Notes under the pieces: model-generated
The model's input: only the letters and a program-made list of their open reading frames with translations
The model's database searches: none
Told to the model about the DNA's origin: nothing
Shown: positions 37,066 through 62,285 of the stretch, in pieces
Position numbering within the stretch: position 1 is the stretch's first letter
Layout of the letters: every line of letters begins with the position of its first letter
From: Dehalococcoidales bacterium
GTDB lineage: Bacteria; Chloroflexota; Dehalococcoidia; Dehalococcoidales; W693
Length of the DNA: 64,000 nt
Assembly (NCBI GenBank): GCA_034431095.1
Contig: DAOUDM010000035.1
Coordinates: 844-64,843, forward strand
Direction: 5' to 3'
Program-made: the position numbers and the translations under genes

Positions 37066-37083
37066 GTAGAGGGGCAAGGAGAG

Positions 37084-37281
37084 TCATTTTAGTTTTGGTT
37101 TTTTATCCAAGACTTCCTTCAAAGGAATTTCAATTACACAAAAGGCGTTTTTTCTCAGAGTTGTAAATTGACCCTTATCTCTACCAGACCTTTGCATCAC
37201 CCGTACAGGTGCTATCTTAAATGCCTCTACAGCAATTTTATCGCCTTTTAATGCATCCCCTTGATTACGATATGTTGGCAT
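37084..37281 (-). CDS. Hypothetical small protein (65 aa), third gene of the low-GC three-gene operon
   Basis: ATG at 37281 (MPTYRNQGDALKGDKIAVEAF...). It overlaps the upstream gene by 17 nt and has a basic C-terminus, DKKPKLK. I recognise no family. Confidence 0.45.
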   Translation of the reverse strand: MPTYRNQGDALKGDKIAVEAFKIAPVRVMQRSGRDKGQFTTLRKNAFCVIEIPLKEVLDKKPKLK

Positions 37282-38372: not shown

Positions 38373-38408
38373 TTATAAAAGTTTGGGAGTTAAAAGTTAC
38401 CCTTAAGT

Positions 38409-38463
38409 ATTATAACATAATTACTTGATTTACACCTATACACCCTTTATCACTTTTTGTCAA
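38409..38463 (-). promoter_or_regulatory. Candidate promoter(s) of the low-GC three-gene operon
   Basis: The reverse strand has an extended -10, TGTTATAAT (TATAAT at 38409-38414). Further upstream is TTGACA (38458-38463), a 17-nt spacer, then TATAGG (38435-38440). Confidence 0.4.
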
Positions 38464-38487
38464 TACCACCTATATTTATGAAATTTA

Positions 38488-39735
38488 TTAACTATATCCT
38501 CTCACCAGCCCCTCCTCATCTTCCCTCGTCCTGACCTTGCCGTCCAGCCGTGCATCGATTAGCTGGCCAAGAAGTTCTTTAATGCGTGGACCTTGAGGAA
38601 CCCCCATCTTTATCAGGTCGTCGCCGGTGAGTATCGGCTTTACCGTGTGTAGCTTATCCAGATATAGTTGAAGGTGCTGGCGAGCCTGTGGCAAGTCGCT
38701 GGCGATGAGGTTGGCGGTTAACGACTGCGTTGAATAGCCTTCGAGCAGGTGATGGACGGCACTTGGCTTTAGTTTGGAATCAGCCAACTGTGATATCTTG
38801 GCTTTGATGCTGGCGGTATCCTGCAGGGTTTTAGCAAGCGTCTTGGGTAATCTGAGGTATGAGATAAGTTTATCCCTCGGCTTGTTATCCAGTTTGTAGG
38901 TTAACAGTGCCAGATACAGACCTACCGGGGGGCGGCTGGGTGAGCTTGCCTCTCGCGCCTGGCGGAACTTTTCTGCCAGCCAGCCGTTGCCTTTCAGTGC
39001 CGGCTCCAGTTTTGCCAGGACGCCCAGTTCACTAGCGCGGCGGAAGACCTTCTCCGGGAACTCCTCCTTGAGGATACACTCAAGTTCATAGCGGATGCGG
39101 TCGCCGCTTATGGTGTCCAGCATGGGTATATCTCGTTTCAGCAGGCGGAGGGTTTCCGGCTCCAGCTGAAAATCCAGCCTCTGCTCGTAGCGTAGACCGC
39201 GCCAGATACGCGTAGAATCGTCAATGAAGCTCTTTTGGTGCAGGAAGCGTATCATCCTACCCCCCAGGTCTTTTTGCCCGCCGTACGGGTCAATCAGGCG
39301 TCCGTAACCTTTGGGGTTGAGACCGATAGCCATAGCGTTGATGGTAAAGTCGCGGCGGCGGAGGTCGTCGCTCAGGGAGCCGGGCTTTACCATGGGCAGG
39401 GCGCCGGGTTGGGCGTAGCTTTCCTTGCGGGCGGAAGCCAGGTCGATGCTCCACCCGTGCCAGACAATCTTGGCGGTGTTAAAACGCTTATGGACGGTGA
39501 TTTTCCCGGTTTCGTCGTCCGATAGCTCACGGGCGAGGGCTATGGCGTCGCCCTCCACTACCAGGTCGATGTCGAGGTTGGTCTTGTCTAGCAGCAGGTC
39601 ACGCACGATGCCGCCGACAAGATAAAGTCTTTCCCCTTTGCTATCAGCCAGCCTGCCGGCATCTTGGATAAAAGCAAACAGTCCGCCGGGCAATCGCTTC
39701 TCTATTTTCCGGGTGAGGTTATCGCTTTTAGCCAT
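38488..39735 (-). CDS. cca: CCA-adding enzyme / tRNA nucleotidyltransferase (PolyA_pol family)
   Basis: 415 aa. LYLVGGIVRDLLLDKTNLDIDLVVEGD is the GG(x)VRD...DxD nucleotidyltransferase motif, followed by RRRDFTINAMA. This is consistent with both tRNA genes in the window lacking an encoded CCA. Confidence 0.85.
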   Translation of the reverse strand: MAKSDNLTRKIEKRLPGGLFAFIQDAGRLADSKGERLYLVGGIVRDLLLDKTNLDIDLVVEGDAIALARELSDDETGKITVHKRFNTAKIVWHGWSIDLASARKESYAQPGALPMVKPGSLSDDLRRRDFTINAMAIGLNPKGYGRLIDPYGGQKDLGGRMIRFLHQKSFIDDSTRIWRGLRYEQRLDFQLEPETLRLLKRDIPMLDTISGDRIRYELECILKEEFPEKVFRRASELGVLAKLEPALKGNGWLAEKFRQAREASSPSRPPVGLYLALLTYKLDNKPRDKLISYLRLPKTLAKTLQDTASIKAKISQLADSKLKPSAVHHLLEGYSTQSLTANLIASDLPQARQHLQLYLDKLHTVKPILTGDDLIKMGVPQGPRIKELLGQLIDARLDGKVRTREDEEGLVRGYS

Positions 39736-42241: not shown

Positions 42242-42769
42242 CTAGTCTATGTTCTCTTTCTGGTAGATGCCCTGGTAGCCTTGTGTCTGGTCCGTCAGCC
42301 GGAAGAAAACAAGCTGAATGACTCTGGCGTTTCTCTGCAATTGAAACCCCTGGGGATGATAGACGACCAGCAGGGACTGGGAGCGTCCCGAGTAGCCGGC
42401 ATCCCATACCGCAGTGTTTACCGTAACGCCACAGCGGAGCAGGCTCGACCTGGGTGTCGCCAGTGCCATAATGTTTTGGGGCAGGTGGACAACCTCGTTA
42501 TAGGTGATGCTGTAGATGCCGGGTGCCAGCTGGATGAAGCCCAGCCCGTCGAATACCAGCGGCGATAGAGTAGACACCACTCGCTGGCTGTTGCTGGCGG
42601 CTACCTTGCCCGGCGACTGGAGCATAGCCACCTCTCGCAAAGTAAGGTCAACGCCGTTGGGCTGTAGCTGTTCTTCGAGGTTGATACAGCCTTCTATTAA
42701 AGGCGGCTCCTGTTTAAGTAATCCCTGTATATCTTTTTTTGTCAAAACGGTTGTCATATCAAATATCAA
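42242..42769 (-). CDS. dCTP deaminase / dUTPase-superfamily protein (archaeal-type dUTPase-like)
   Basis: 175 aa. LQPNGVDLTLREV, LATPRSSLLRCGV and AVWDAGYSGRS fit the trimeric dUTPase/Dcd fold family. Confidence 0.8.
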   Translation of the reverse strand: MIFDMTTVLTKKDIQGLLKQEPPLIEGCINLEEQLQPNGVDLTLREVAMLQSPGKVAASNSQRVVSTLSPLVFDGLGFIQLAPGIYSITYNEVVHLPQNIMALATPRSSLLRCGVTVNTAVWDAGYSGRSQSLLVVYHPQGFQLQRNARVIQLVFFRLTDQTQGYQGIYQKENID

Positions 42770-42862
42770 TCAATATAAAAGTGGCGGCTTTTGCCGTTAA
42801 TTTTAGCTTCTCCTCCCCTTTTTATCAATTTAGATAGGCGATGATATGCGATACTCAAAGGT

Positions 42863-43399
42863 CTAAAAAGTATGCGAGAGCTCCATTACTAGCATATCAA
42901 CATACTCCCCGCTAGGGAGTAACCATGAATCCTTAAGAAGTTCTGCCCTCCGAAAGCCTATCTTTTCATAAGCTTGAATAGCTCTTTGGTTAGACGGAAA
43001 GACGGTCAGGCCAAGCAAAGTAAGCCCAAGCTCATTGAAAGCGTAGTCTATCGCCTTCTTTAATGCTTCTGTGCCATATCCCTTCCCACGATACTCCCTG
43101 TCCATGATAGCAATTCCAACCTCAGCCCGGCCTTCCGCCTTATTGATACCTTTAATTGATACATAACCAATGGCTTTATTGTTAGTAGCAAGGATTATAC
43201 TGAATACTATTACTTTCCCATCTTTTAAATTTGGCAGACTTAATACCCGAGAGAAATCAATGAACCTGTCCTTCTCGTTAGGGCGGAATGGTTTCCACCC
43301 CATAGTGGCAATCAATTCGGGATCATTAGAGAGTGACATGTAGTGGTGGATATGTTCATCTTCCATGGGGGATAAGTGAATTCTATCCTCAGTTTTCAC
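42863..43399 (-). CDS. GNAT-family N-acetyltransferase (RimJ/RimL-like)
   Basis: 178 aa. The acetyl-CoA binding region is EVGIAIMDREYRGKGYGTEALKKAIDYAF...VFPSNQRAIQAYEKIGF. GC is lower than the core (about 28-50% in samples). Confidence 0.85.
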   Translation of the reverse strand: MKTEDRIHLSPMEDEHIHHYMSLSNDPELIATMGWKPFRPNEKDRFIDFSRVLSLPNLKDGKVIVFSIILATNNKAIGYVSIKGINKAEGRAEVGIAIMDREYRGKGYGTEALKKAIDYAFNELGLTLLGLTVFPSNQRAIQAYEKIGFRRAELLKDSWLLPSGEYVDMLVMELSHTF

Positions 43400-43469
43400 T
43401 CTGGCAGTTTACCACAAGGATGACTGCCTGAGGAAGCTGTCACCAACAAATGGCATAGGCTAATAAAAA

Positions 43470-43544
43470 AAGTGGCAGCGATTGGATTTGAACCAACGAC
43501 CAAGGGCTTATGAGTTCCAGCCTCTGCCTCTTCTACTTGGGGCA
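43470..43544 (-). pseudogene. tRNA remnant: perfect copy of the 3' 43 nt of the CAU tRNA plus a degenerate 5' half (att-site-like direct repeat)
   Basis: 43470-43515 (AAGTGGCAGCGATTGGATTTGAACCAACGACCAAGGGCTTATGAGT) is identical, 46 of 46, to 44438-44483. That covers tRNA positions 31-73 and 3 nt beyond. The following 30 nt (43516-43544) align only loosely with the tRNA 5' half and cannot form an acceptor stem. Confidence 0.85.
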
Positions 43545-43769
43545 TTATGTTCTCTTAGACTTCTTCTTAGTATAGGGTTGCTTTATTGTGTCTTCAAAGA
43601 AATTTGCTAATACCGACCTACCGAAATTCATTAATGCACCAACCAGTATCTGGGAAATTCTAAATAACCAGCCAGTACTGAATAGAAGTAGCGCAAGCAA
43701 AGACAATATTACTATCTCTAATACGCCCATTTGAAAATCCAGAAGAGTTTGGTAGTTATTATTATACAA
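43545..43769 (-). CDS. Hypothetical small membrane protein (74 aa or shorter)
   Basis: Hydrophobic core MGVLEIVILSLLALLLFSTGWLF...ILVGALMNF with a basic tail, KKKSKRT. It lies inside the tRNA-bounded islet. The start is uncertain, since an internal Met at MGVLE is also possible. Confidence 0.45.
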   Translation of the reverse strand: MYNNNYQTLLDFQMGVLEIVILSLLALLLFSTGWLFRISQILVGALMNFGRSVLANFFEDTIKQPYTKKKSKRT

Positions 43770-43803
43770 TACTTTCGATTGAATAGTTATCTTTTACTGA
43801 ATT

Positions 43804-44388
43804 CTAACTAGTGTCACAACCACTTAAAAGTTCTTCAATACGTTGATTGCATTTATTTATTGGCTTTTTTATTTTATTTATGGTATCTATATTTCCCCTG
43901 TTACTACCTTTAAGTGCTATTAAAGACTGGCTTTTTATACACTCTTTTAAACTTGTAATCATACCTCTATTATTTTGTAAACATAAAGCTCCAAATTCTT
44001 TGATTGTATTCGATAGAAGACTATCAGTTACTTTAGCACCTGCAAGAGTTAATTCTCTTGTGGTTTCCCCTAGATTACTATAAATCTTAAGAGCTTTCTT
44101 CAGTTCGTTCTTCCGTTCGGCTGAATCCTTAGATTGTGAAGCTATATTCATTTGGAAGGTTGCTTCAGTTAGTAAAATATCGAATTCGTACAATAAGTGT
44201 CGGAGTGGCTCCAAATAAGTTGCCCGAACCTTAGTAAGCCTCTCACGTATAGCTTCTTCTTTTTCATGTTGCATACGAGCATGCAAACGTTTATCTGCTG
44301 ATTTATTGGTAAAAATTAGTGCACCTAGTGAAGCGATTAAGGTGGCAAAAGCTGTAATAAGCGCAACAGACACTATATCAGACATCAT
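43804..44388 (-). CDS. Hypothetical membrane-anchored helical protein (194 aa)
   Basis: N-terminal TM helix IVSVALITAFATLIASLGALIF, then a long charged, helical-looking region (HEKEEAIRERLTKVRATYLEPLRHLL...). GGAGGTG lies upstream of the ATG. Low GC. Confidence 0.55.
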   Translation of the reverse strand: MMSDIVSVALITAFATLIASLGALIFTNKSADKRLHARMQHEKEEAIRERLTKVRATYLEPLRHLLYEFDILLTEATFQMNIASQSKDSAERKNELKKALKIYSNLGETTRELTLAGAKVTDSLLSNTIKEFGALCLQNNRGMITSLKECIKSQSLIALKGSNRGNIDTINKIKKPINKCNQRIEELLSGCDTS

Positions 44389-44440
44389 TCACCTCCTACG
44401 GATAGGATTATAGCATCCATTTATGCTGAAAATAAACAAG

Positions 44441-44512
44441 TGGCAGCGATTGGATTTGAACCAACGACCAAGGGCTTATGAGTCCCCTGCTCTGCCACTG
44501 AGCTACGCTGCC
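44441..44512 (-). tRNA. tRNA with CAU anticodon (elongator Met, or lysidine-dependent Ile2)
   Basis: The reverse strand reads GGCAGCGTAGCTCAGTGGCAGAGCAGGGGACTCATAAGCCCTTGGTCGTTGGTTCAAATCCAATCGCTGCCA. It folds with a 7-bp acceptor, a GCTC/GAGC D stem, loop CTCATAA (anticodon = rc of 44478-44480), and T arm GTTGG-TTCAAAT-CCAAT. The G1:C72 pair argues against an initiator. No CCA is encoded. The body resembles my recollection of E. coli ileX at least as much as metT. Confidence 0.9.
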
Positions 44513-44549
44513 ATTATGTCCTGATTTTAGCTTTATATCAGCCCCTGGT

Positions 44550-44578
44550 ATTGTATAATCCTGTTGCCGTGTTGTCAA
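44550..44578 (-). promoter_or_regulatory. Candidate promoter of the CAU tRNA
   Basis: The reverse strand reads TTGACA (44573-44578), a 17-nt spacer, then TACAAT (44550-44555). It lies about 35 nt upstream of the tRNA 5' end. Confidence 0.5.
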
Positions 44579-44613
44579 TTTCAGGGAGATGATTTGCTCG
44601 GGCTGGGTAGACT

Positions 44614-44724
44614 TTATCGTCCCCTTTTTTCGTATTCGGGGCACCAGGTAGCGTTGGGGCGTTCCGGGTTATGGCATGCCCCGCGCCAGTTCCACTTGCA
44701 ACTATCGCACAGGAATATGTTCAT
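44614..44724 (-). CDS. Putative Cys-rich micro-protein (36 aa; alternative start gives 54 aa)
   Basis: MNIFLCDSCKWNWRGACHNPERPNATWCPEYEKRGR has four Cys (CxxC...C...C). A GAAGG lies 9 nt upstream of the ATG at 44724, and an alternative ATG is at 44778. The full 92-aa track ORF would overlap the divergent corA start, so it was rejected. Confidence 0.3.
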   Translation of the reverse strand: MNIFLCDSCKWNWRGACHNPERPNATWCPEYEKRGR

Positions 44725-44890
44725 ACCCAGCGCCTTCTTTATCCTGAGAATAATCCTGTGTCTTAGAGGGGGCTTCATTTTTATACCAGGTTGGAGTAAA
44801 ATATACTGTTTATAGTATATCAGGTCAGGTGCTATCGGGCAAAGATGTGATAGAATAGGCCTGTCGGCTTTGGTGAAAGGATAATCTGTC

Positions 44891-50987: not shown

Positions 50988-52502
50988 TTGCTAGAAGATA
51001 AAACCGTAGTGCTGGGCGTAACCGGCAGTATCGCCGCCTATAAAGCGGCTGATATCGCCAGTAAGCTAACCCAGGCGGGGGCCAGGGTTGAGGCGGTCAT
51101 GACCGACTCCGCCACCAGGTTCATCACTCCGATGACGCTGCGCAGTATCACCAGGCGGCCAGTGGTAACCAGCATGTGGGAGATGGCTTCCGAGTTCAGT
51201 ATTGAGCATGTGGCGCTGGCGGAGGCGGCCGATGTGGTGGTCATCGCTCCGGCGACGGCCAATATTATCGCCCACCTTGCCGGCGGCATGGCCGACGATA
51301 TGCTTACCTGCACCGTGCTGGCAACAAAGGCTCCGGTTATTATCGCCCCGGCAATGAACGACAACATGTTCAACAACCCGGTTACCCAGGAGAATATAGA
51401 GAAACTAAAGGCGAGGGGCTTTGTTTTTGTTGCACCCGGCTATGGACATCTGGCTTCGGGCAAGACGGGTGTCGGCCGTCTGGCCGATACGGAAGTAATC
51501 ATCGGCACCATCAAACAGGTGCTGGGCAGGAGCGGTGACCTGGTGGGTAAACGCATTGTAGTTACCGCCGGCGGCACCCGCGAGCCGATTGACCCGGTGC
51601 GCTATATCGGCAACCGCTCCTCGGGCAGGATGGGCTATGCTTTGGCTTCAGCCGCCCGGGACAGGGGGGCGGAAGTCAAACTTATCACCACGGTTACCTG
51701 CCTGCCGGAGACGGTCGGTATTGATGTCGTTGCGGTTGATACCGCAAAAGAAATGGAGCGGGCGGTCAAAGGTGCCGCTAAGGACGCCGATGCCCTGGTT
51801 ATGGCGGCGGCGGTGGCGGATTATAAGCCGGAGACTACCGCCAAAACCAAGATTAAGAAAGAGAGTGCCAGTCTGACGCTGGAACTGGTAAAGACGCCAG
51901 ATATACTGGCTGGAGCAAAGGGAAAATTTATCAAGGTCGGCTTTGCCGCCGAGAGCGAAGACATAGTTGCCAATGCCCGAAAAAAGCTCAAGGAGAAAGG
52001 CCTTGGCCTCATCGTGGCCAACGATATTACCGATAAAGACTGCGGCTTCGGCGCCGATACCAATAAAGTTACCATAATAGATAAAGATGGCAAGGTAGAA
52101 GACCTGCCCCTGATGACCAAGCGAGAGGTGGCGGATAAGATTTTGGATAGGGTGGCGGGGATTTTAACTAAAAAGGTATTGCCTTCTATTAAACTTAAAG
52201 TTGTCCCATCGGCACCGGACTACGGATTTATCTTCATACCAAAAAAGTATAGGCATTTATTCCCTGGCTATAAAGAACGATTTAGCTTAAGCACCGATAT
52301 TGGAGAAATTACTACATACATTACAGGAGCTCACAAAGGTACGCCTGTTGGAGACCCGAGCGGAGGAAACCGTATCCATTATGGCTTATCCTCGTGGTAT
52401 CGTGAACATAGTGAGTTACGGGTTGACGCTAGAGCGGTAATCGTGATTAAGGTAATCGAACCTAAAAAGAAGTATCGTCTTCAAATTTGGGAGAAGGAAT
52501 AG
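50988..52502 (+). CDS. coaBC: Phosphopantothenoylcysteine decarboxylase / phosphopantothenate-cysteine ligase (CoaBC) with an in-frame C-terminal extension of about 108 aa
   Basis: 504 aa with a TTG start. CoaC is marked by VVLGVTGSIAAYKAADIASKL and CoaB by VVTAGGTREPIDPVRYIGNRSSGRMG. The normal CoaBC end lies near ...REVADKILDRVAGILTKK (residue 396, nt 52175). The ORF then continues through AT-richer DNA as VLPSIKLKVVPSAPDYGFIFIPKKYRHLFPG...KKKYRLQIWEKE. Confidence 0.88.
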   Translation: MLEDKTVVLGVTGSIAAYKAADIASKLTQAGARVEAVMTDSATRFITPMTLRSITRRPVVTSMWEMASEFSIEHVALAEAADVVVIAPATANIIAHLAGGMADDMLTCTVLATKAPVIIAPAMNDNMFNNPVTQENIEKLKARGFVFVAPGYGHLASGKTGVGRLADTEVIIGTIKQVLGRSGDLVGKRIVVTAGGTREPIDPVRYIGNRSSGRMGYALASAARDRGAEVKLITTVTCLPETVGIDVVAVDTAKEMERAVKGAAKDADALVMAAAVADYKPETTAKTKIKKESASLTLELVKTPDILAGAKGKFIKVGFAAESEDIVANARKKLKEKGLGLIVANDITDKDCGFGADTNKVTIIDKDGKVEDLPLMTKREVADKILDRVAGILTKKVLPSIKLKVVPSAPDYGFIFIPKKYRHLFPGYKERFSLSTDIGEITTYITGAHKGTPVGDPSGGNRIHYGLSSWYREHSELRVDARAVIVIKVIEPKKKYRLQIWEKE

Positions 52503-52528
52503 GCTGAATAGAAATATTGGAAAGAACA

Positions 52529-53476
52529 ATGAAGCGATATGTAATGCCCGTCTTGGCTTTAGTTTTAATCGCAAGCTTATTGCCAGTGTTTGGTTGCGGA
52601 AGCGGAGAGGGTATTTCGGAGAAGCGTGTTATAAAGGCTACCTATGATTATTTGATTGATAGAGCTGAAGAACTGCAGGGAGCTGAAGGTTTTCTGGCGA
52701 AGGGCCAAATAGATTGGGGATTTCATTCGGCAGTGCTTAATGCTTGGAAGGAAGCTACACTCTCTGATGATGGATCTGGAAAGTCAGTTGAAATTTATCT
52801 CGATAAGCGAGATGCAGAAATGGAAGCAAGGAATCAAGCTGCAGGTATACCGAAAGACGCATCTTATAAAATACAAACTTCTTCAAATGCCCTAAAAATG
52901 TTAGCTCAGGATGAAGGAAGCGGACTGTGGGCAGTTTCGATAGGCGAATGGGAACTTGGGTTCAATGAAATAACAAACGAGGTTTTCTCTAAAAATAATG
53001 AAGCTGCGATACTATTAGAAGAAATCACGCTAAAGATATATCACAATACAAAATATGGTTACTCCATAGACTATCCTCCCAAATGGAATATTCTTGATGT
53101 TATAAAAGAGGCGGTCAATATTTCATATGTAAGTTCAGATGCTACTATGGAAAGGGCCATATTTGTTAATATTCTCCCTAAGATTCAGGGGCTCGGACTG
53201 AACGATTACGCAGAATGGAGAGTGAATTCCTTTCGTTACGAAGATTACCAGATATATTTGGCAGAAGGTAATCAGAAGGTCAGTGGAATAGTAGCATACA
53301 TCACCGGACTTAGATTCGAATACCTAGAAATACTAGGAAACTATATAGGCTACGAAGCTCGGTGGTACTTCATTGAGAAAGATGAGAAGATTTGCGAAAT
53401 ACTTACGATTGCAAGGCCAATGCTTTTTAGGACATACTTGTTCGACCCTTATCCAAGTTTTCAATTTTATCCGTAA
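52529..53476 (+). CDS. Putative lipoprotein of unknown function
   Basis: ORF trimmed to MKRYVMPVLALVLIASLLPVFGCGSGEG, a signal peptide with the lipobox L-P-V-F-G-C. 315 aa. The segment is low-GC (about 33-48% in samples). Confidence 0.6.
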   Translation: MKRYVMPVLALVLIASLLPVFGCGSGEGISEKRVIKATYDYLIDRAEELQGAEGFLAKGQIDWGFHSAVLNAWKEATLSDDGSGKSVEIYLDKRDAEMEARNQAAGIPKDASYKIQTSSNALKMLAQDEGSGLWAVSIGEWELGFNEITNEVFSKNNEAAILLEEITLKIYHNTKYGYSIDYPPKWNILDVIKEAVNISYVSSDATMERAIFVNILPKIQGLGLNDYAEWRVNSFRYEDYQIYLAEGNQKVSGIVAYITGLRFEYLEILGNYIGYEARWYFIEKDEKICEILTIARPMLFRTYLFDPYPSFQFYP

Positions 53477-53802: not shown

Positions 53803-56469
53803 ATGGCAGAGACACAAAACGAAATGCCCAAAGCCTATGAGCCAGCCGATGTCGAGACTAAGTGGTATAAGTTCTGGCTGGAGAGGGACTACTTCAAGCC
53901 CAGGATAGACCCGAATAAGAAACCATTTGTCATCATAATGCCACCACCGAATGTCACTGGCGAGCTGCACCTGGGGCATGCCCTGACGGCAACCCTGGAA
54001 GACATAATGATACGCTGGCACCGTATGCTGGGTGAGCCGACCCTGTGGTTGCCCGGCGTCGACCACTCCGGCATCGCTGCCCAGGTGGTGGTGGAGAAAT
54101 TGCTGGCTGATGAGGGTATCGACCGGCATCAACTGGGTCGGGAGAAGTTCCTGGAAAGGATGTGGCAGTGGGCGAACAGCTGCCGGGAGACTATTTCCAG
54201 ACAGCACCAGCGGCTGGGAACATCCTGCGACTGGAGCCGGGAGACCTTTACCCTGGATGCGGGACCGAGCAAGGCGGTACGCACTGTTTTTACTAATCTT
54301 TACCATAAGGGGCTCATCTACCGGGGGGAGCGGATAATAAACTGGTGTCCCCGTTGCGCTACCGCCCTCTCCGATCTTGAGGTCGACCACCAGGAGCTAG
54401 TCGGCAACCTGTACTATGTCCGCTACCCGCTGGTTGAAGACGGCGATAAATACATTACCGTTGCCACCACCCGCCCCGAGACGATACTCGGCGATACGGC
54501 GGTAGCCGTTAACCCGGAAGATAAGCGGTTCCAGGCTATGCTGGGTAAAAAGGTCGTCCTGCCGGCGGTAAAAAGAGAGATTCCCATTGTGGCTGACGAG
54601 GCGGTAGACCCCAGTTTCGGCACCGGAGCCGTCAAAATCACCCCGGCTCATGACCCGGTGGACTTTGATGTTTCTCAACGGCAGGGACTACCGCTGGTAA
54701 ATATACTGAACCCCGATGCCACTATGAATGAAAATGCCGGCCCCTATGTCGGGCTTGACCGTTTTGCCTGCCGCAAGGCGATACTAGCCGACTTAGAAAG
54801 AGATGGGTATCTGGTAAAGACAGAGCCCTATTCACACTCCGTTGGCCACTGCCATCGCTGTCGCACCGTAATTGAGCCGATAGCCAGCAAGCAGTGGTTT
54901 GTGAAGACGGCGCCACTGGCAAAACCGGCTATTGAAGCCGTCACCGGCGGCAGGATAAAGATTATACCGGAGCGCTTCAACAAGGTATACCTCAACTGGA
55001 TGGAGAATATCCGCGACTGGTGCATCTCCCGCCAGCTATGGTGGGGGCACCGGATACCGGTGTGGTACTGCCGTAGCTGTGGTGAGCAGACGGTAAGCGT
55101 TGAGGATGCTACCGCCTGCCTCAGTTGTGGCTCGTCTGATATAGAGCAAGACCCCGATGTCCTGGATACCTGGTTCAGTTCGGCACTCTGGGCTCACTCC
55201 ACCCTGGGCTGGCCCGACGATACCGAGGACTTTCGCTACTTCTACCCGACCACGGTAATGGAGACCGGCTATGACATCCTCTTCTTCTGGGTAGCCCGGA
55301 TGATTATGATGGGGCTTGAGGATACCGGCGATATCCCCTTCAGCGTCGTCTACCTCCACGGGCTGATACGCGATGAAAAGGGAGAGAAGATGAGCAAGCT
55401 CCGGGGCAACGTGCTTAACCCGATTGACACCCTGGAGAAGTACGGCACCGATGCCCTGCGCTTTGCTCTGACCACGGGAACATCGCCGGGCAACGATATC
55501 AAGCTGGCGCCGTCGCGCCTGGAGGCGGGGCGTAACTTTGCCAATAAACTGTGGAACGCAACACGCTTCGTGCTCCGCAGTGCCAGCTCGTACAACGGCG
55601 ATATGAAAGTCAAACTGCCTTTAGAGTTAACTGAAGACCGCTGGATTGTGAGCCGGCTGAATGCCACCATAGCCGACGCTGACCGCCTGATGCGGGACTA
55701 TCAGTTCGGGGAGGCGCAACGACAGATTCACGATTTCCTCTGGGGCGAGTTCTGCGACTGGTATATCGAGATGGCCAAGATTCGCCTTGGTGCTGGTTTG
55801 GAGGCACCGTCACCGGTGCCGGTGCTAGCGCATGTCCTGGAGATATCGTTACGTCTACTCCACCCCTTTATGCCCTTCCTCACCGAGGAACTGTGGCAGA
55901 ATATCAGGGAGCGGGCGCCTGTTGGCGGGCAAAAGGCTGACTCGATAATGGTGGCTGCCTATCCGGAGGCAGATAAAACAGCCAGGGACGCGGAGGCGGA
56001 GCGGGTGATGGTGGCAATCATAGACATAATACACGCCATCCGCAATGCCCGGGCGGAAAACAAGGTAGAAGCAAGCCGTCAGATTGACGCCCGGATATAT
56101 GCCGGTGAGCTGAAAACGGCTATCGCCGCTCACACTCAGGCTATCCAGACCCTGGCTAGGGCAAGGGTTGCCGTCATCGACGCGGAGAAAGAAAGGACGA
56201 CTGAAAATGCCCTGGCACTGGTGTTGCCAGAAGCCGAGGTGGTGATACCGATGGCGAGCATGGTTGACCTCGAGGCGGAGAAGAAGAGGCTGTCGCAGGA
56301 GATAGAGCAAACCCAAGCCGAGGTTGCCCGTCTGGAGGTTATGTTAAACGATAAGGCTTTCCTGGCCAAAGCGCCGGCGGCTGTCGTTGATAAAGAGCGT
56401 GCCCGGCTGGCAGTCAGGAAGGACAACCTGAGAAGGCTTACCGAGCACCTTGACCGGTTGAAGTCTTAG
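53803..56469 (+). CDS. valS: Valine-tRNA ligase
   Basis: 888 aa. HIGH motif PPPNVTGELHLGH, KMSKS motif EKMSKLRGN, an editing-domain insertion and a C-terminal coiled coil. Confidence 0.97.
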   Translation: MAETQNEMPKAYEPADVETKWYKFWLERDYFKPRIDPNKKPFVIIMPPPNVTGELHLGHALTATLEDIMIRWHRMLGEPTLWLPGVDHSGIAAQVVVEKLLADEGIDRHQLGREKFLERMWQWANSCRETISRQHQRLGTSCDWSRETFTLDAGPSKAVRTVFTNLYHKGLIYRGERIINWCPRCATALSDLEVDHQELVGNLYYVRYPLVEDGDKYITVATTRPETILGDTAVAVNPEDKRFQAMLGKKVVLPAVKREIPIVADEAVDPSFGTGAVKITPAHDPVDFDVSQRQGLPLVNILNPDATMNENAGPYVGLDRFACRKAILADLERDGYLVKTEPYSHSVGHCHRCRTVIEPIASKQWFVKTAPLAKPAIEAVTGGRIKIIPERFNKVYLNWMENIRDWCISRQLWWGHRIPVWYCRSCGEQTVSVEDATACLSCGSSDIEQDPDVLDTWFSSALWAHSTLGWPDDTEDFRYFYPTTVMETGYDILFFWVARMIMMGLEDTGDIPFSVVYLHGLIRDEKGEKMSKLRGNVLNPIDTLEKYGTDALRFALTTGTSPGNDIKLAPSRLEAGRNFANKLWNATRFVLRSASSYNGDMKVKLPLELTEDRWIVSRLNATIADADRLMRDYQFGEAQRQIHDFLWGEFCDWYIEMAKIRLGAGLEAPSPVPVLAHVLEISLRLLHPFMPFLTEELWQNIRERAPVGGQKADSIMVAAYPEADKTARDAEAERVMVAIIDIIHAIRNARAENKVEASRQIDARIYAGELKTAIAAHTQAIQTLARARVAVIDAEKERTTENALALVLPEAEVVIPMASMVDLEAEKKRLSQEIEQTQAEVARLEVMLNDKAFLAKAPAAVVDKERARLAVRKDNLRRLTEHLDRLKS

Positions 56470-56861
56470 CTGCCGCCGGTATAGCTACGGCGGGGGTAGA
56501 AGATGAGTAAGGCGGCAACGAAGATGGCGTTCAGGACTAACCCGAACCATATGTGGCCAATTTCAATATAGCCCTGCCAGAGGGCGTATAGCGGTGTTAT
56601 AAACATCAGACTGGCCCACAAAATGGCGAACCTGACACTGTTGATGTTGCGTATCGGGTCAAGGAAGGTCATGGCGAACCAGACTCCGGCGGCAATGAAG
56701 GCACTGCCGGTAATAGCCATAAGATAGGACATTTGGTCATTCACAGCCCCGAAGCCGTACAGGTCGGCTATCCTGTCGGGGGCTACCAGGAGAATAATCC
56801 CTTGTGTTATGTATATAGCTCCATAGATAACCAGGGCTATCTTAAGGTTAAGGCTGCGCAT
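56466..56861 (-). CDS. Hypothetical integral membrane protein (4 predicted TM helices)
   Basis: 131 aa. MRSLNLKIALVIYGAIYITQGIILLVAP... GGAGGTAAATAG lies directly upstream of the ATG. Its 3' end overlaps the valS stop by 4 nt (convergent). Confidence 0.6.
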   Translation of the reverse strand: MRSLNLKIALVIYGAIYITQGIILLVAPDRIADLYGFGAVNDQMSYLMAITGSAFIAAGVWFAMTFLDPIRNINSVRFAILWASLMFITPLYALWQGYIEIGHIWFGLVLNAIFVAALLIFYPRRSYTGGS

Positions 56862-56981: not shown

Positions 56982-57716
56982 CTACCCTGTCCAGCCATAA
57001 ACTGCTGGCTGGTCGTCCCGGGCGATGGTGATGGCGTTGCCTCTTAGCCACTTGAGCGCCTTCTTGGTGTCGCTGGCGACCCTTGCCTTGTCGCAGTGCT
57101 CCAGGCGGTACTTGAACAGCCAGTAGGTGAACTCCTTTAGCTCGGTCAGGCTCGTAGACCTGCTCTTGGGGTAGCCCCTTTCCCGTCGGAACTGCTTCAA
57201 CAGCTCGGATTGGTTGGTGCCGTATATCCGGTAATAAGCCTCATCGGGCGGGCTGTGCTTCTTGCCCAGCCCCAGCGACCGCCTCTCCTTGTGCACCTCC
57301 TCCTCAACCGTCTGGATGAGGGCTTCTTCCACGGTAACGCCGTAGAAGTAGTTAAGGTATTGCTGGTACTTGTGACCGCCGATGGGTTTCTTAAACTCGT
57401 CGGCGGCAAGCTTGAGGGGCGGCTTGCCGTGGAAGAGGAGGGCCGTCTTCTCGTCCTCGGGCAACAAGCCGTCCACCTCCCGGCACAGGCGTTCGGCGAG
57501 CAACAGCCAGTCAAAGGCTTCGCCGCCGATGAGGTAGCGATACAGCCTGCCGTCTATGGTCTCTTCGGTGGTCTGCCACAGCCCGATAGCCTCCAGCAGA
57601 GCGATGTACCAGTGCCTGCCCGAAGCGATAGCCTCTTTGAGATGCCTCACCGCCTCCCCATCCGCCGGGGTGGGGTGAGGGGATTTATTTTGGAGCTGGT
57701 TAACTAGCTCTGTCAT
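56982..57716 (-). CDS. Hypothetical protein (244 aa), host-like GC, directly downstream of the OLD-family gene
   Basis: MTELVNQLQNKSPHPTPADGEAVRHLKEAIASGRHWYIALLEAIGLWQ... I recognise no motif. The protein is basic and aromatic-rich (YQQYLNYFYG, FTYWLFKYRLEHC). There is a 16-nt gap from the upstream stop. Confidence 0.6.
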   Translation of the reverse strand: MTELVNQLQNKSPHPTPADGEAVRHLKEAIASGRHWYIALLEAIGLWQTTEETIDGRLYRYLIGGEAFDWLLLAERLCREVDGLLPEDEKTALLFHGKPPLKLAADEFKKPIGGHKYQQYLNYFYGVTVEEALIQTVEEEVHKERRSLGLGKKHSPPDEAYYRIYGTNQSELLKQFRRERGYPKSRSTSLTELKEFTYWLFKYRLEHCDKARVASDTKKALKWLRGNAITIARDDQPAVYGWTG

Positions 57717-57732
57717 ATTGACAACCTGCGAA

Positions 57733-59586
57733 TCAATCTGCCACTTTCATTATCAAATCCTTTATTTCTTTGGGTATATCATCTTCCGACATTCTCTTTG
57801 CTACCTCTTGACCAATTGGGCGCTTCCAAAATGTTCTTGCCTTAGGAATCTTGAGTTTTTCATTCAGCAGCCGCTGAATCTCTTTAACCATACGCTCTTT
57901 TTTGTTTATATCATTTTCTGTAAGTTCTAGGCCAAAATTTTCATTTAGGACATGAATAAGAATTGGTGTCGGGTAGCAGTCTTCAATTGTGCCCTCTAAG
58001 ATGAGCCTGTGCTCCTCGTCTACTGACTGCTTAACTTTATCGCTTGCATGACTGTCTACTATTAAGAATACTGTAGTTTGAGCCTGTTTTATATAATCAC
58101 TTATGATATTTATTTTGCGCTTGTCATACTCCCCTTCAAGAACTTCAATTCTCACCTTTTTAATATCCACTTCCAGTCTTTCCGCCCAAATTGGCAACAC
58201 TCCTTCCTCCGTCTCGCCCGCTACAAATAAAATTTTGTTAGGATACCCCCTATCACTTGGTTCAGCTCCTAATAAACCGAAAGCCTCTTGCAGTTCCTTT
58301 TCTGTTTTTATCTCTTTAGCCTTTGCTTCTTTAGCCTTCTTTTCTAGGAACCAATTCTTACCAGCCTCTGACATTTTAACGAAGTACTCGGAATGGGTAG
58401 CTACAATAATTTGTTTCTTGGTTGCCCATTCCTTTAACAGTTTAGATACTCCTCTTGAAAGATTATGATGTAAGTGTGTTTCAGGTTCTTCAACAGCGAT
58501 GATAGGCTCATCAGCCGTATGAACTTGGTACACTAGACTGATAGCTTCTTGCTGACCGCCGCCAATGAGTTGGATAGGAAGACGCAAATTCCTTTCACGT
58601 GTGGATAATACGGGAACCGAATCCAGCCTTTGTCCGGTAAGCTTTTCAACGGCAGTTTCAATTTCATACCAAGCTCCGAAATCAGTTGAGTTTAGATTTT
58701 TGAGCGGCTCAATGATTGTGGATGTGTTAAGGAATGATGAGCGCTCTCCTGGTTCTACTCGTTCATCTCGTGTCGCTGGTATCAATTTCAGCTTACCTTT
58801 AATTTTCTCGGTAATCCTATTCTGAACGTATTGAAGCGTTTCACTAGTAACTAATGAAACCTCTCTGCCAAGAAAAGCATCAACATCCTCCTTTGCAGGA
58901 GGATTTTCTACGAGGTCAAATTCTTGATTAGCAGCCCAGACCTTGTAGTCTTCCCCGGGAAGCTGTTTAAAGGGAATCTGACCCTCACGGACTAAACTAT
59001 CGGTGTAATCATCCATGTGGTAAGCAATTTTATTCAAAACAACTAACCGATTGCCTATCAGGTTTGATTGGTTTGCGTTCGGGTCAAATAAGAAAGCTTT
59101 CACTTTGCCAGTTGGACGCTTAGTGGCTACTTTACCTATCGATTTGTTTAGCTCTTCTGGCGATACCACAGAGTTGTTTTTCACCAAAGGAACTTTCGCG
59201 ATATTTATTTGCACAGTCTCCCATGGTGCTTCTGGTTTTGTGATTTGCCTATGGATAGTAAGCTCCTTATAACTATCCCTATATTTTTCAATAACCTTAT
59301 CTAGCATATCCTCTGGAAATATGTCCCTGCACTCCTCCTCGTCTAGTACTATTTTGGCAATGAATTCTAATGGAACCTTCTTATTATGCCACGAAGTGTC
59401 TTCCTGTAGTATTGGGGAAGGTGAACCACCAACAATACTAAAGTCTTTAAAGAACAGGTATAAAGCTTCTAACATGCTCGTTTTTCCAGAACCATTTTCC
59501 CCAATCAAGGTTGTGTAGTTACCAAAGTCCACTTTTACTTCACGCAAACTTTTGTAGTTCTTTACTGTAAATTCGACTAAATTCAT
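57733..59586 (-). CDS. OLD-family ATP-dependent endonuclease (N-terminal ABC-type ATPase + C-terminal TOPRIM), class 1-like stand-alone gene
   Basis: 617 aa. Walker A LIGENGSGKTSMLEAL, Walker B-like IIAVEEPETHLHH, and H-loop VATHSEYF. TOPRIM-type acidic motifs are KILFVAGETEEGVLP, FLIVDSHASD and LILEGTIEDCYP. GC is about 33% in a sampled 60-mer. GGAGGT lies 6 nt upstream of the ATG. Confidence 0.85.
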   Translation of the reverse strand: MNLVEFTVKNYKSLREVKVDFGNYTTLIGENGSGKTSMLEALYLFFKDFSIVGGSPSPILQEDTSWHNKKVPLEFIAKIVLDEEECRDIFPEDMLDKVIEKYRDSYKELTIHRQITKPEAPWETVQINIAKVPLVKNNSVVSPEELNKSIGKVATKRPTGKVKAFLFDPNANQSNLIGNRLVVLNKIAYHMDDYTDSLVREGQIPFKQLPGEDYKVWAANQEFDLVENPPAKEDVDAFLGREVSLVTSETLQYVQNRITEKIKGKLKLIPATRDERVEPGERSSFLNTSTIIEPLKNLNSTDFGAWYEIETAVEKLTGQRLDSVPVLSTRERNLRLPIQLIGGGQQEAISLVYQVHTADEPIIAVEEPETHLHHNLSRGVSKLLKEWATKKQIIVATHSEYFVKMSEAGKNWFLEKKAKEAKAKEIKTEKELQEAFGLLGAEPSDRGYPNKILFVAGETEEGVLPIWAERLEVDIKKVRIEVLEGEYDKRKINIISDYIKQAQTTVFLIVDSHASDKVKQSVDEEHRLILEGTIEDCYPTPILIHVLNENFGLELTENDINKKERMVKEIQRLLNEKLKIPKARTFWKRPIGQEVAKRMSEDDIPKEIKDLIMKVAD

Positions 59587-59624
59587 AGTTTACCTCCATA
59601 AGTTATTTTTTATTATACTCCTCC

Positions 59625-62285
59625 TCACTTCCCACAGCACTTTTTAAACTTCTTGCCACTGCCGCAGGGGCAGGGGTCGTTTCTGCCCACTTTTTTGCCG
59701 GTTGTTCTTGGCGGCTTTTGTCCGTCCACGCCGCTGGCATCGGTGGTAGCTGCAGCTATTGCCGTTGCCGGCTTGGGGGGAGGGGTCCCCTTCTTTATGC
59801 CCAGCCGAAAGATGGCATGCGCCACGGAGTGCTGGATGGCGGCTAGCAGGTCCTGGAACATCTCGTGGCTTCTTTGCTTGTAGGCTACCAGCGGGTCACG
59901 CTGAGCCATAGCCTGTAGCCCGATGCCCTGGCGCATATACTCCATCGCCGTCAGGTGCTCCACCCACAGGCCGTCCATGGTGCGTAGCATCACCAGCCTT
60001 TCCAGCAGCCTCATGTTATCGGCGCCCATCTCCTCCTCCCGCCGCTGGTAGAGGGCGTGGGCTTGCTCCATCAGCTTCTCCTCGACCTGATTGGGTTGCA
60101 TCCGGGAGAGTGCCCGGGCGTTTATTTCCGGGGGCAGGGGGAGGATGGTAGCCACATCGGCGATAAGGCTGTCGAAGGGCTGGTCGTTTTCGTAGTCATT
60201 AAGGCGGGCGGCTGCTATATTCTTGATTTCCTCCCCGACCATCGACAGGATATTGGCTTTGAGGTCGGCGCCGCTCAGTATCTTCTTCCGTTCGCCGTAG
60301 ATAATCTCGCGCTGTTTGTTGATGACGTCGTCGTATTCCACCAGGTGCTTGCGCATATCGAAGTGGTAGCCCTCGACCCGCGTCTGGGCGCTCTCGATGG
60401 AGCGGCTGACCAGCCTGTTCTCGATGGGGGTATTTTCATCCATGCCGGCCCAGTCCATAATTCCCCTGATACGGTCGCCGCCGAAGCGGCGCATGATATC
60501 GTCTTCCAGGGAGACATAGAAGCGAGAGCTGCCCGGGTCTCCCTGGCGGCCGGCCCTGCCGCGGAGCTGGTTATCGATACGGCGCGCCTCGTGGCGCTCA
60601 CTGCCGATAACGTGCAGACCGCCGCGCTCGACTACCTTGTTGTGTGTCTCCTGCCACTTCAGCCACTCCGGTTTATTGTCGTTGTCCGGCTCCCTGCCGC
60701 CGAGGACGATGTCAACGCCGCGCCCGGCCATATTGGTGGCGACGGTGACCGCCCCCGGCTCTCCGGCCTGGGCGATAATATTGGCTTCCTTCTCGTGCAT
60801 TTTGGCATTGAGCACCTGATGGGGGATGCCCCTTCTTTTCAGCATTTCGCTCAGTCGCTCCGATTTCTCGATAGATACCGTGCCGATGAGCACCGGGCGT
60901 CCCTCTTTATGAATCTGCTCAATCTCGTTGACTTCCGCCTTGAACTTGGACTCCTCGTCTTTGTAGATCTGGTCGGGGTGGTCCTGCCTTATCATCGGTC
61001 GGTTGGTGGGGATGACCAATACCTCCAGCTTGTATATCTTGTGGAACTCCTCGGCTTCGGTGACGGCGGTGCCGGTCATGCCAGCTAGCTTGTCGTACAT
61101 ACGGAAGTTGTTCTGGATGGTGATGGTGGCATAGGTGCGGCTCTCCTGCTGTATCTTGACCCGCTCCTTGGCTTCTATTGCCTGGTGCAGTCCCTCGGAG
61201 TAGCGGCGCCCCAGCATCATACGCCCGGTGAACTCGTCGACGATGATAACCTGACCGTCCTTGACAACGTATTGCTGGTCTTTTTTATAGAACTCGCGGG
61301 CATTGAGGGCGTTTCTCAGGTGGCGCATCAGGTCGGCACTCTCCGGGTCGTAGAGGCTGGCCGACTTGAGTATCCCTTCACGCTTGAGTAGTCTCTCGAT
61401 GACGTTAAAGCCTTCATCGGTCGGCTCAGCGCTGCGCTCCTTTTCCTTGACCTCGTAGTCTACGCCCGGCTTCAAGCGCTGGATAAGGCGGGTGAATATC
61501 TGGTATCTCTGCCCTGCTTCTACGTCGGGGGCACTAATGATGAGCGGCGTGCGGGCTTCGTCGATAAGCAGGTTATCGACCTCGTCGACGATGGCGTAGT
61601 TGAGCTGTCGCTGGACACAGCGGGAAAGGTCAACCGCCATATTGTCCCGCAGATAGTCGAAGCCGAACTCGCTTGAGGTGCCATAGATTATATCCGCCTG
61701 GTAGGCCTCTTTGCGGGGAATGGGGCGGAAGTGGCGCCAGGGGTCATTCTCCTTGCCCGAATCGTATTTCGGGTCATATATGCAGGCTGGTGTATGCTCA
61801 TCAGGGCTCTGCATCGGGAAGACACTGGCGACGCTGACCCCCAGGGCGTGGTAGATAGGCCCCATCCAGTAGGGGTCGCGCCGTGCCAGGTAGTCGTTGA
61901 CGGTAACCAGGTGACAGCCGTTGCCGGTAAGGGAATTGAGGTAGAGGGGCAGGGTGGCGACCAGCGTCTTGCCCTCACCGGTCTTCATCTCGGCGATTTT
62001 GCCCTGGTGCAGGACGATGCCGCCGATGAGCTGTACATCGAAGTGGCGCTGGCCTAAAGTCCGCCGTGCCGCCTCGCGAACGGCGGCAAAGGCTTCCGGC
62101 AGAAGCTCGTCAAGCGAAGTACCATCTTTGAGCTGTCCCTTGAACCGGTCGGTCTTGCCCCGCAATTCGGCGTCGGTAAGATTATTAAATTCAGGCTCGA
62201 GCTCGTTTATACAGGCGACCAACGGCTCCAGTCTTTTGAGTTCCCTCTCGTTGGAATCGCGCAGTCCACCCAGCCATTTAAACAT
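59625..62285 (-). CDS. secA: Preprotein translocase ATPase SecA
   Basis: 886 aa. MFKWLGGLRDSNERELKRL..., Walker A MKTGEGKT, DEVDNLLIDEARTPLIIS, and C-terminal zinc-binding CPCGSGKKFKKCCG. Confidence 0.97.
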   Translation of the reverse strand: MFKWLGGLRDSNERELKRLEPLVACINELEPEFNNLTDAELRGKTDRFKGQLKDGTSLDELLPEAFAAVREAARRTLGQRHFDVQLIGGIVLHQGKIAEMKTGEGKTLVATLPLYLNSLTGNGCHLVTVNDYLARRDPYWMGPIYHALGVSVASVFPMQSPDEHTPACIYDPKYDSGKENDPWRHFRPIPRKEAYQADIIYGTSSEFGFDYLRDNMAVDLSRCVQRQLNYAIVDEVDNLLIDEARTPLIISAPDVEAGQRYQIFTRLIQRLKPGVDYEVKEKERSAEPTDEGFNVIERLLKREGILKSASLYDPESADLMRHLRNALNAREFYKKDQQYVVKDGQVIIVDEFTGRMMLGRRYSEGLHQAIEAKERVKIQQESRTYATITIQNNFRMYDKLAGMTGTAVTEAEEFHKIYKLEVLVIPTNRPMIRQDHPDQIYKDEESKFKAEVNEIEQIHKEGRPVLIGTVSIEKSERLSEMLKRRGIPHQVLNAKMHEKEANIIAQAGEPGAVTVATNMAGRGVDIVLGGREPDNDNKPEWLKWQETHNKVVERGGLHVIGSERHEARRIDNQLRGRAGRQGDPGSSRFYVSLEDDIMRRFGGDRIRGIMDWAGMDENTPIENRLVSRSIESAQTRVEGYHFDMRKHLVEYDDVINKQREIIYGERKKILSGADLKANILSMVGEEIKNIAAARLNDYENDQPFDSLIADVATILPLPPEINARALSRMQPNQVEEKLMEQAHALYQRREEEMGADNMRLLERLVMLRTMDGLWVEHLTAMEYMRQGIGLQAMAQRDPLVAYKQRSHEMFQDLLAAIQHSVAHAIFRLGIKKGTPPPKPATAIAAATTDASGVDGQKPPRTTGKKVGRNDPCPCGSGKKFKKCCGK

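Follow-up and report, generated by a model that had tools for sequence, protein, structure and literature searches.

A stand-alone OLD-family ATPase-Toprim gene at a variable site after secA in Dehalococcoidia

How did a single gene of low G + C content come to stand within a tightly packed string of housekeeping genes, and what might it do there? The question is raised by a 64,000-nucleotide stretch of contig DAOUDM010000035.1, from a Dehalococcoidales bacterium, which was analyzed here as a whole (hereafter, the window). The gene encodes a 617-aa protein of the OLD (overcoming lysogenization defect) family, in which an ATP-binding cassette (ABC)-type ATPase is followed by a Toprim domain, and it is situated between secA and p244, an open reading frame (ORF) encoding a 244-aa protein. 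Taken as a whole, the reading that this gene is accessory and was acquired horizontally from lower-GC Dehalococcoidia, that it occupies a recurrent hotspot, that it serves in defence and that p244 is only its neighbour is in our view quite probable. The family and domain layout of the protein, the accessory nature of its gene, the hotspot and the independence from p244 are established by the comparisons below, whereas the role in defence, its trigger and the substrate are proposed from characterized OLD proteins.

An OLD-family gene inserted between secA and p244

The assignment of the 617-aa protein to the OLD family is solid, as profile searches and structural comparison agree. Pfam AAA_15 matched residues 1-403 (E = 3e-29); the best PADLOC models were AriA, GajA and Old (1.9e-31 to 6e-22), with GajA profiles reaching 3e-25 and the AriA match limited to the ATPase part; and the best NCBIfam model was the retron-Eco8 OLD effector (1.9e-14, residues 359-531), at 53 bits against a cutoff of 250. 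The best PDB match of a profile of the clade was the OLD protein of Thermus scotoductus (TsOLD, 6P74; 6.9e-26), and the alignment spanned the TsOLD P-loop, the stretch from Walker B to the H-loop, and strands beta1 (VEG) and beta3 (DxD) of Toprim. When the AlphaFold2 (AF2) model of the protein (predicted local distance difference test, pLDDT, 87) was used as a Foldseek query, the best full-length matches were GajA (8sm3, 1.2e-15), retron-Eco8 OLD and TsOLD (6P74, 1e-13), with SMC and Rad50 heads ranking after the OLD proteins. The architecture named in the original prediction, which was made from the letters alone, is supported by these matches, and every motif that it listed (GENGSGKT, EEPETHLHH, ATHSEYF, VAGETEEG, IVDSHASD and LEGTIEDCYP) was found. 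The profile check that it proposed for both domains had a divided outcome, as AAA_15 matched strongly while Pfam OLD-like_TOPRIM (PF20469) remained below threshold (E = 0.029, residues 450-511); this profile is carried by homologues at 26-32% identity.

Motif invariance was assessed from an alignment of 26 OLD homologues and the AF2 model. Residues G29, N31, S33, G34, K35, G342, G344 and Q346 were invariant, as were E366, E367, P368, E369, H373, T397 and H398, and the ATPase motifs are intact, including the Walker A Lys, the acidic Walker B with its catalytic Glu and the H-loop His. A region of about 250 aa (approximately residues 50-330), inserted between Walker A and the signature motif, is predicted with confidence by AF2 and may correspond to the dimerization domain that OLD ATPases carry as an insert, and four beta-alpha units at residues 451-537 of the model form the C-terminal Toprim fold.

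The gene is accessory to the locus in which it lies. Scanning of GTDB species genomes with the 244-aa protein retrieved 80 Dehalococcoidia loci, including 54 species with both flanks, and the gene order in loci with captured flanks was prs-(DUF2007)-secA-gap-p244-(p131)-valS. The OLD gene was found in none of the 80 loci and in none of the 54 species. In the closest relative (L001; amino acid identities of 89% for valS, 87% for p131 and 83% for p244, with 86% nucleotide identity for p244), the distance from the secA stop to the p244 ATG is 4 nt, as compared with 1908 nt in the window. A second assembly of the same population, a 121-kb contig, shows the identical arrangement, with 616 of 617 OLD residues identical. 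The composition of the gene is likewise distinct, as its GC content is 40.1% and its GC at third codon positions (GC3) 37.2%, against 58.7% and 76% in secA and 59.7% and 81% in p244. Thus, the contrast with its neighbours that had been claimed for the gene holds (GC3 of 37% against 76-81%), although the GC value of about 33% given for it does not; p244 was correctly described as host-like in GC and devoid of recognizable motifs. The reading as a single-gene insertion is borne out by the 4-nt junction in L001 and survived the comparison of secA downstream regions in relatives. The accompanying picture of a one-off splice into a housekeeping string does not stand, because the gene is one of many alternative cargoes and its clade recurs at the same hotspot in other lineages.

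The variable site after secA and its cargo

Across the 54 species, the gap from secA to p244 ranged from -9 to 5310 bp (median 1.5 kb; 33 gaps exceeded 1 kb), and the gap was usually 5-20 GC points poorer than its flanks. The 120 gap ORFs were clustered and scanned with Pfam, which revealed that the cargo between secA and PolX, a family-X DNA polymerase (HHH_8, pol-beta thumb and PHP domains, approximately 573 aa), includes type II restriction-modification systems, in which an N6_N4 methyltransferase is accompanied by a BsaWI-, MvaI/BcnI-, BanI/DpnII- or HaeII-like endonuclease. In addition, toxin-antitoxin pairs (PIN with HTH_17, and DUF4258 with DUF2283) and EVE-domain, HNH and HATPase_c_3 proteins were observed, and neither an integrase nor a transposase was present among the 25 most frequent gap families. 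With its conserved core flanks and its variable, defence-enriched content, the site after secA is a recurrent chromosomal defence hotspot, bounded by the secA 3' end and by PolX/p244. No description of this hotspot in Dehalococcoidia was found in the literature searchable for this analysis.

Where PolX occurs, it immediately precedes p244. The full-length gene was found in 15 loci, approximately 16 more have only an HHH_8 remnant of about 95 aa (in some, 161-185 aa), and the sub-clade of the window lacks PolX. PolX is ancestral content of the secA-p244 gap that has often decayed; the HHH_8-only ORFs appear intact, and PolX seems either to have decayed repeatedly or to have left its N-terminal 8-kDa domain behind as a small protein of its own.

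The locus resembles the core defence hotspots (cDHS) of Pseudomonas aeruginosa (PMC10250203) and the defence islands of Escherichia coli (PMC10121019) in having housekeeping flanks (secA to the left, PolX/p244/valS to the right) and a highly variable, defence-rich content, here with no integrase or transposase among the frequent families. It differs from them in being very small (0-5.3 kb, usually with one system), in lying inside a co-directional gene string without terminators, and in carrying duplicated boundary sequences, namely the secA 3' tail in L090 and C4small, a small gene treated below, in L085 and L096. These duplications suggest that exchange proceeds by recombination at short anchors.

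Close homologues of the OLD clade are rare, numbering about 30 among 5.8 billion clustered proteins. Context look-ups and a metagenome scan yielded 14 informative distinct contexts, with OLD homologues 65-75% identical. A context was assigned to the hotspot if the gene stood directly after secA and/or directly before C4small/PolX, and 11 of the 14 met this definition (the window, L085, L086, L090, L091, L094, L096, L097, L098, L099 and L100), the three others (L081, L083 and L088) lying elsewhere. The OLD homologue at the hotspot in L092 (684-2537), one of a group of three with those in L091 and L099 in which disruption was seen in two lineages, comes from the metagenome of the window itself (ERZ23486252).

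The OLD gene has a history of its own at this site. Its GC stays at 39-42% across the hosts, with L083 (47%) as the one exception, while host GC ranges from about 42% to about 60%, and L097 is a second high-GC host carrying a copy of 40% GC. Identities of OLD and of the secA tail were not correlated (Spearman 0.01, p = 0.94): L091 and L094 share 94% identity in the secA tail and merely 69% in OLD, while L097 and L098 share 81% in OLD and merely 59% in the secA tail. Two copies are disrupted, in L091 (904-2757), where the gene is split into 216 and 373 aa, and in L099 (287-2136), where it is frameshifted at codon 343/344. In L090, a 66-nt duplicate of the secA 3' end (1798-1866) lies between a PIN/HTH_17 toxin-antitoxin module and OLD, with the intact secA end about 1 kb upstream, which looks like the footprint of a cargo insertion via recombination at the secA tail; C4small copies are present on both sides of OLD in L085 (2664-2885 and 4784-5014) and L096 (208-270 and 2186-2398). 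The concentration of contexts at the hotspot, the decoupling of OLD from secA, the disrupted copies, the GC of OLD and the duplicated boundaries together point to horizontal exchange of cargo at this site. As to the route by which the gene was transferred, we infer exchange by recombination at the conserved boundary sequences, which is plausible in view of these duplications.

The copies outside the hotspot share a common leader of about 40-60 nt before the start codon (AAGGAAG..CAGCTTTCTTC; L081 5520-5626, L083 510-613 and L088 1920-2029), and that in L081 and L088 holds a TAYACTGAATAGTA stretch. When not located behind secA, the OLD gene may carry along a promoter or leader of its own.

Whether p244 is a functional partner of OLD had been left open in the original prediction, and the comparison answers this question: p244 is a lineage-wide core gene and the original right-hand neighbour. 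Its homologues number more than 7310 (60-83% identity, none annotated), against about 30 for the OLD clade, and the synteny secA...p244...valS is kept in all 80 fetched loci, each devoid of OLD. A two-gene system of OLD and p244 is thus extremely improbable, even though the two genes are co-directional, stand 16 nt apart without a terminator between them, and a protein without known function such as p244 could conceivably act as a partner. In L086, the 3.1 kb that separate p244 from OLD hold C4small, PolX and a lactamase_B gene; in other OLD-bearing hotspots, the two are kept apart by C4small, by PolX, whole or as a remnant, or by a lactamase_B gene; and the L081, L083 and L088 contexts contain no p244 at all. 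Moreover, p244 is host-like in GC and OLD is not. No family or structure match for p244 was obtained in Pfam, NCBIfam, PADLOC, PHROGs, a PDB phmmer search or a PDB profile search, and its AF2 model is poor (pLDDT 57). The recurrent position of p244 directly downstream of PolX is the sole hint to its function.

A second candidate partner is C4small, an acidic ORF of 73 aa without a Pfam or PHROG match, which follows OLD in most hotspot copies. Its start lies 24-33 nt past the OLD stop in L085, L086, L090, L091, L094, L096, L099 and L100, and its presence on both sides of OLD in L085 and L096 could also speak for an association, for example as a regulator or antitoxin, in which case the window copy would be an orphan that has lost its partner. 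However, C4small follows unrelated cargo (methyltransferases, EVE and HATPase proteins) and precedes PolX in six OLD-free loci (L003, L012, L017, L023, L028 and L076), and thus behaves as a right-boundary gene of the hotspot. Its position was always the right-hand end of the cargo, where it touches or overlaps the start of PolX (e.g., L003 8053-8274 and L012 8046-8288). In addition, it is missing beside OLD in the window, L097, L081, L083 and L088, and the divergences of OLD and C4small are uncorrelated (Spearman 0.14). We therefore consider it quite improbable that OLD normally works with C4small. This ORF may be a recombination anchor or a small regulator.

The Toprim active site and the known OLD classes

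In TsOLD, metal A is bound by E377, D431 and D433 and metal B by D381, S478 and E480, with R487 as the catalytic Arg (PMC7049728). The corresponding residues in the window protein are A456, D511 and H513 for metal A, and E460, T533 and E535 for metal B. Thus, the metal B ligands are intact, whereas metal A keeps D511 only. The acidic motifs for which a TOPRIM set had been proposed are present, although the set is not fully canonical, with Ala in place of the Glu and His in place of the second Asp.

This variant site is a property of the clade. All 17 close members (34-100% identity) have Ala, Ser or Gly at position 456 and His at position 513, and D511, E535 and K588 are invariant among them, as are E460, T533 and Y538, while Glu and Asp, the canonical residues, occupy these two positions in the outgroup (26-32% identity). 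Among 113 representatives of the wider sub-family, Glu456 is lost in the clade of the window only, D511, E535 and K588 are nearly invariant, and position 513 varies among D, G, H and N; the change of DxD to DxH was consequently rejected as a clade-specific feature. The retention of [A/S/G]456 and H513 together with invariant D511, E535 and K588 down to 34% identity suggests that the variant site is under purifying selection. E458, which is kept in 16 of the 17 close members and is K, Y or D in more distant A456-type members, could possibly replace the lost Toprim Glu. K588 is located 53 residues past E535, and in BpOLD the distance from E508 to K562 is 54 residues (numbering of PMC7049728); judging from this spacing, K588 may be a Class-2-type catalytic Lys contributed by the helical domain, equivalent to BpOLD K562.

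Could the Toprim domain be catalytically dead, so that the protein acts by its ATPase alone (as a sensor, clamp or toxic ATPase), or the gene be heading to decay? Such a state would accord with A456 in place of the Toprim Glu and H513 in place of D433, with the 12- to 15-fold loss of activity in a TsOLD metal-A triple mutant (PMC7049728), with two frameshifted OLD homologues and with E. coli YbjD, for which a dispensable Toprim and an essential ATPase are reported (PMC13261556). However, the substitutions are fixed across the clade to 34% identity beside invariant D511, E460, T533, E535, Y538 and K588, which argues for a maintained rather than a decaying active site. TsOLD metal-A mutants still nick DNA (PMC7049728), and the ORF in the window is intact and differs by one residue in 617 between two assemblies. 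A dead Toprim is thus rather unlikely.

With regard to the known classes, the gene is Class-1-like by context. Like P2 Old, TsOLD and the Vibrio cholerae OLD (Vc OLD), it is a single gene without a dedicated partner and with variable neighbourhoods, as its 14 contexts have differing neighbours and none contains a helicase or reverse transcriptase, and it shares with them an N-terminal ABC ATPase (Walker B Glu, D-loop and H-loop His) and a C-terminal Toprim. By sequence, it departs from two Class 1 features (PMC7049728). First, E377 of TsOLD is replaced by Ala, and the second Asp of DxD by His, in the clade of the window. Second, the window protein has an additional helical C-terminus of about 80 aa (residues 540-617) with the invariant Lys588, in contrast to TsOLD, which has the loop Arg R487 and no helical domain (PMC7049728); neither Arg nor Lys is found 7 residues after E535 (sequence EDCYPTPI). 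The window protein is also longer than TsOLD (617 against 525 aa), and it lies among defence genes, while Class 1 genes have been described as not near defence genes (PMC10568477). The signature-like GGGQQE is intact in the clade of the window, whereas it is reported to be degenerate in Class 1 (PMC7049728); the full clade motif reads IGGGQQE, of which G342, G344 and Q346 do not vary.

The partners that define Classes 2-5 are absent. Class 2 (GajA and BpOLD) likewise has a helical region C-terminal to Toprim, with the conserved Lys 53 residues (window) or 54 residues (BpOLD) past the metal-B Glu. In contrast to Class 2, the OLD gene is not followed by a GajB/UvrD-like helicase, be it in the window or in the 14 homologue contexts, the AF2 model lacks the insert helix between alpha3 and beta4, and the metal-A ligands differ. 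The earlier statement that the gene, unlike Gabija, has no helicase partner is in line with this, as p244 also lacks helicase motifs. The reverse transcriptase and msr/msd non-coding RNA of Class 3 (retron) are not present either: secA is 38 nt and p244 16 nt away, which leaves no room for a non-coding RNA, and there is no reverse transcriptase gene. In Class 4 (PARIS AriA/AriB) the two functions are encoded by split genes, while the window has both domains in one 617-aa ORF. Class 5 (Cran1) is archaeal, essential and part of a conserved operon with a membrane protein (PMC12796447), while the gene in the window is bacterial, rare and accessory, and the conservation of p131, the membrane protein nearby, does not depend on OLD.

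These features could be taken further, in a tentative proposal that we regard as on balance unlikely: the OLD clade would constitute a functionally distinct class (solo, with a Class-2-like helical C-terminus and catalytic Lys, and a metal A site with [A/S/G]456, D511 and H513), and the post-secA site would be an integrase-free cassette-exchange locus. A distinct class would imply a difference in substrate or in metal chemistry; the enzyme could, for instance, be a single-site nickase with His-coordinated Mn/Zn, or an RNase. Defence cargo would then be swapped at two anchors, the SEC-C-coding secA 3' end and the C4small/PolX start, and cassette exchange would have left its footprints in the duplicated anchors of L090, L085 and L096.

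Proposed role and layout of the locus

The stand-alone OLD enzyme most likely serves as a single-gene defence against phages or mobile elements, in analogy to the characterized Class 1 OLDs, on which the following mechanism is based. TsOLD is an ATPase and two-metal nuclease (PMC7049728), the V. cholerae Vc OLD nicks DNA and blocks the replication of phages (PMC12392090), and P2 OLD is activated by ATP and cuts tRNA anticodon stems (PMC12445682). The ATPase dimer would bind and hydrolyze ATP and thereby gate the Toprim nuclease. Phage infection would be the trigger, upon which the nuclease might nick DNA, as Vc OLD does, or cut tRNA anticodon stems, as P2 OLD does; with either substrate, phage replication would be blocked or the infection aborted. 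The remodelled metal A (A456 and H513), with the metal B ligands and the Lys kept, would favour nicking, or a changed use of metal (Mn2+ or His-coordinated), over processive degradation.

An alternative hypothesis is that the protein has a housekeeping or genome-maintenance role, in the manner of Cran1 or RecF/SbcC. Its ATPase resembles SMC, Rad50 and RecF heads, the gene stands among housekeeping genes and, in relatives, beside the repair polymerase PolX, and an archaeal OLD, Cran1, is essential without serving in defence (PMC12796447). However, the gene is absent from 54 of 54 related species and from the closest relative, its composition is foreign, its phylogeny is decoupled from that of the flanks, pseudogenized copies exist, and its site is shared with restriction-modification and toxin-antitoxin cargo. 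We consider this alternative very improbable, and a role in defence is retained as the preferred explanation.

Several observations weigh against the defence reading or the proposed route of acquisition. The non-defence role of Cran1 means that membership in the OLD family is no proof of a defence function, which for this clade is a prediction. The clade lacks the Toprim Glu that all Class 1 OLDs are reported to conserve (PMC7049728) and, together with the sub-threshold OLD-like_TOPRIM match, this indicates that the nuclease could be weak, altered or inactive. The OLD gene in the window is not followed by the C4small that accompanies most of its hotspot relatives. No relatives of OLD were found in phage records or IMG/VR, a plasmid search returned only three distant archaeal matches (26-31% identity), and at the window locus neither a mobility gene nor a flanking direct or inverted repeat was found to mark the insertion. 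An origin from a transposon, prophage or plasmid was rejected on the same grounds.

With a solo OLD nuclease and a compact defence hotspot, the locus extends the immune repertoire of Dehalococcoidia, which are uncultured or slow-growing and whose repertoire is barely described. The general principle remains unchanged, as both the kind of system and the kind of locus were already known; what is new is the atypical OLD active site and a previously undescribed, conceptually ordinary hotspot. The clade is a natural experiment on the Toprim site, in which a supposedly universal Glu is replaced and the site is still conserved, and its biochemistry could show how flexible two-metal Toprim catalysis is. 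In addition, the anchors of the hotspot are recognizable and could be used for mining Dehalococcoidia metagenomes for new defence genes.

The features of the locus are listed in Table 1. The coordinates and both intergenic distances given in the original prediction were correct according to the ORF map, and the identity of the prs-DUF2007-secA string, as well as that of valS, is backed by Pfam; prs and the DUF2007 gene lie upstream of secA, and valS lies downstream in convergent orientation. The genes secA, OLD and p244 are co-directional. The spacer between the first two reads ggaggagTATAATaaaaaataacttatGGAGGTaaact, followed by the ATG, so that the TATAAT and GGAGGT claimed for it could be read directly; a promoter scan of this 38-nt gap found no -35 partner for the TATAAT. 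The spacers of hotspot OLD homologues are 16-18 nt long and contain AGGAGG. In agreement with the earlier claim, a scan of the minus strand detected no terminator-like site at the secA/OLD or OLD/p244 junction. Transcription of the OLD gene probably reads through from secA and/or starts at the TATAAT of the spacer, and translation would use its own Shine-Dalgarno sequence. The first 11 nt of the OLD/p244 spacer (ttcgcaggttg) are similar to the sequence after the OLD stop in L085 (ttcccaggtgg).

Table 1. Features of the secA-p244 region of the window, with PolX examples from related loci
Feature	Position	Strand	Evidence or remark
OLD-family ATPase-Toprim gene, 617 aa	57733-59586	minus	ORF map
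ABC-type ATPase region, aa 1-440, with inserted middle region	58267-59586	minus	Pfam AAA_15
Walker A, G29-T36	59479-59502	minus	within ATPase region
Signature-like GGGQQE, approximately aa 341-347	58546-58566	minus	within ATPase region
Walker B/D-loop, IAVEEPETHLHH	58468-58503	minus	within ATPase region
H-loop, ATHS	58390-58401	minus	within ATPase region
Toprim domain, aa 450-539, four beta-alpha units	57970-58239	minus	6P74 profile alignment; AF2 model
C-terminal helical region, aa 540-617, with K588	57736-57969	minus	AF2 helices 540-551, 566-578, 588-598 and 606-616
secA, left flank of the hotspot	59625-62285	minus	Pfam SecA_DEAD, P-loop_SecA, SecA_SW and SEC-C; 3' end codes for the SEC-C zinc motif
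secA/OLD spacer, 38 nt	59587-59624	minus	TATAAT; GGAGGT Shine-Dalgarno 6 nt before the ATG
OLD/p244 spacer, 16 nt	57717-57732	minus	read from the sequence
p244, 244-aa ORF, right flank of the hotspot	56982-57716	minus	core gene without function assignment, outside the OLD system
p131, small membrane protein (context only)	56466-56861	minus	weak Pfam DUF6632 match
PolX or remnant, examples	L043 8244-9986; L008 9705-9992; L070 9465-9950		about 30 other loci

Downstream of p244, p131 (minus strand, ending at 56466) and valS (plus strand, ending at 56469) are convergent, with a 4-nt overlap of their 3' ends. p131 was found in the sub-clade nearest to the window (L001, L002, L004, L006, L007, L011, L016, L030, L031 and L039). 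Beyond valS, the coaBC ORF (504 aa; region 50988-53476) runs approximately 140 aa past the end of its DFP domain (aa 364), with falling GC. The ORF after it (319 aa, 52517-53476) is low in GC (39.7%), has a signal/lipobox-like N-terminus and lacks a Pfam match; here, between coaBC and valS, a second insert of foreign origin may be present. Two more low-GC islands are present in the window, at 37001-38750 and 42751-44750 (minimum 0.33 in 500-nt windows). Their ORFs comprise 177 and 200 aa, and 194 aa, without a Pfam match, together with a GNAT acetyltransferase, and the island at 42751-44750 adjoins a tRNA-Met gene (44440-44512).

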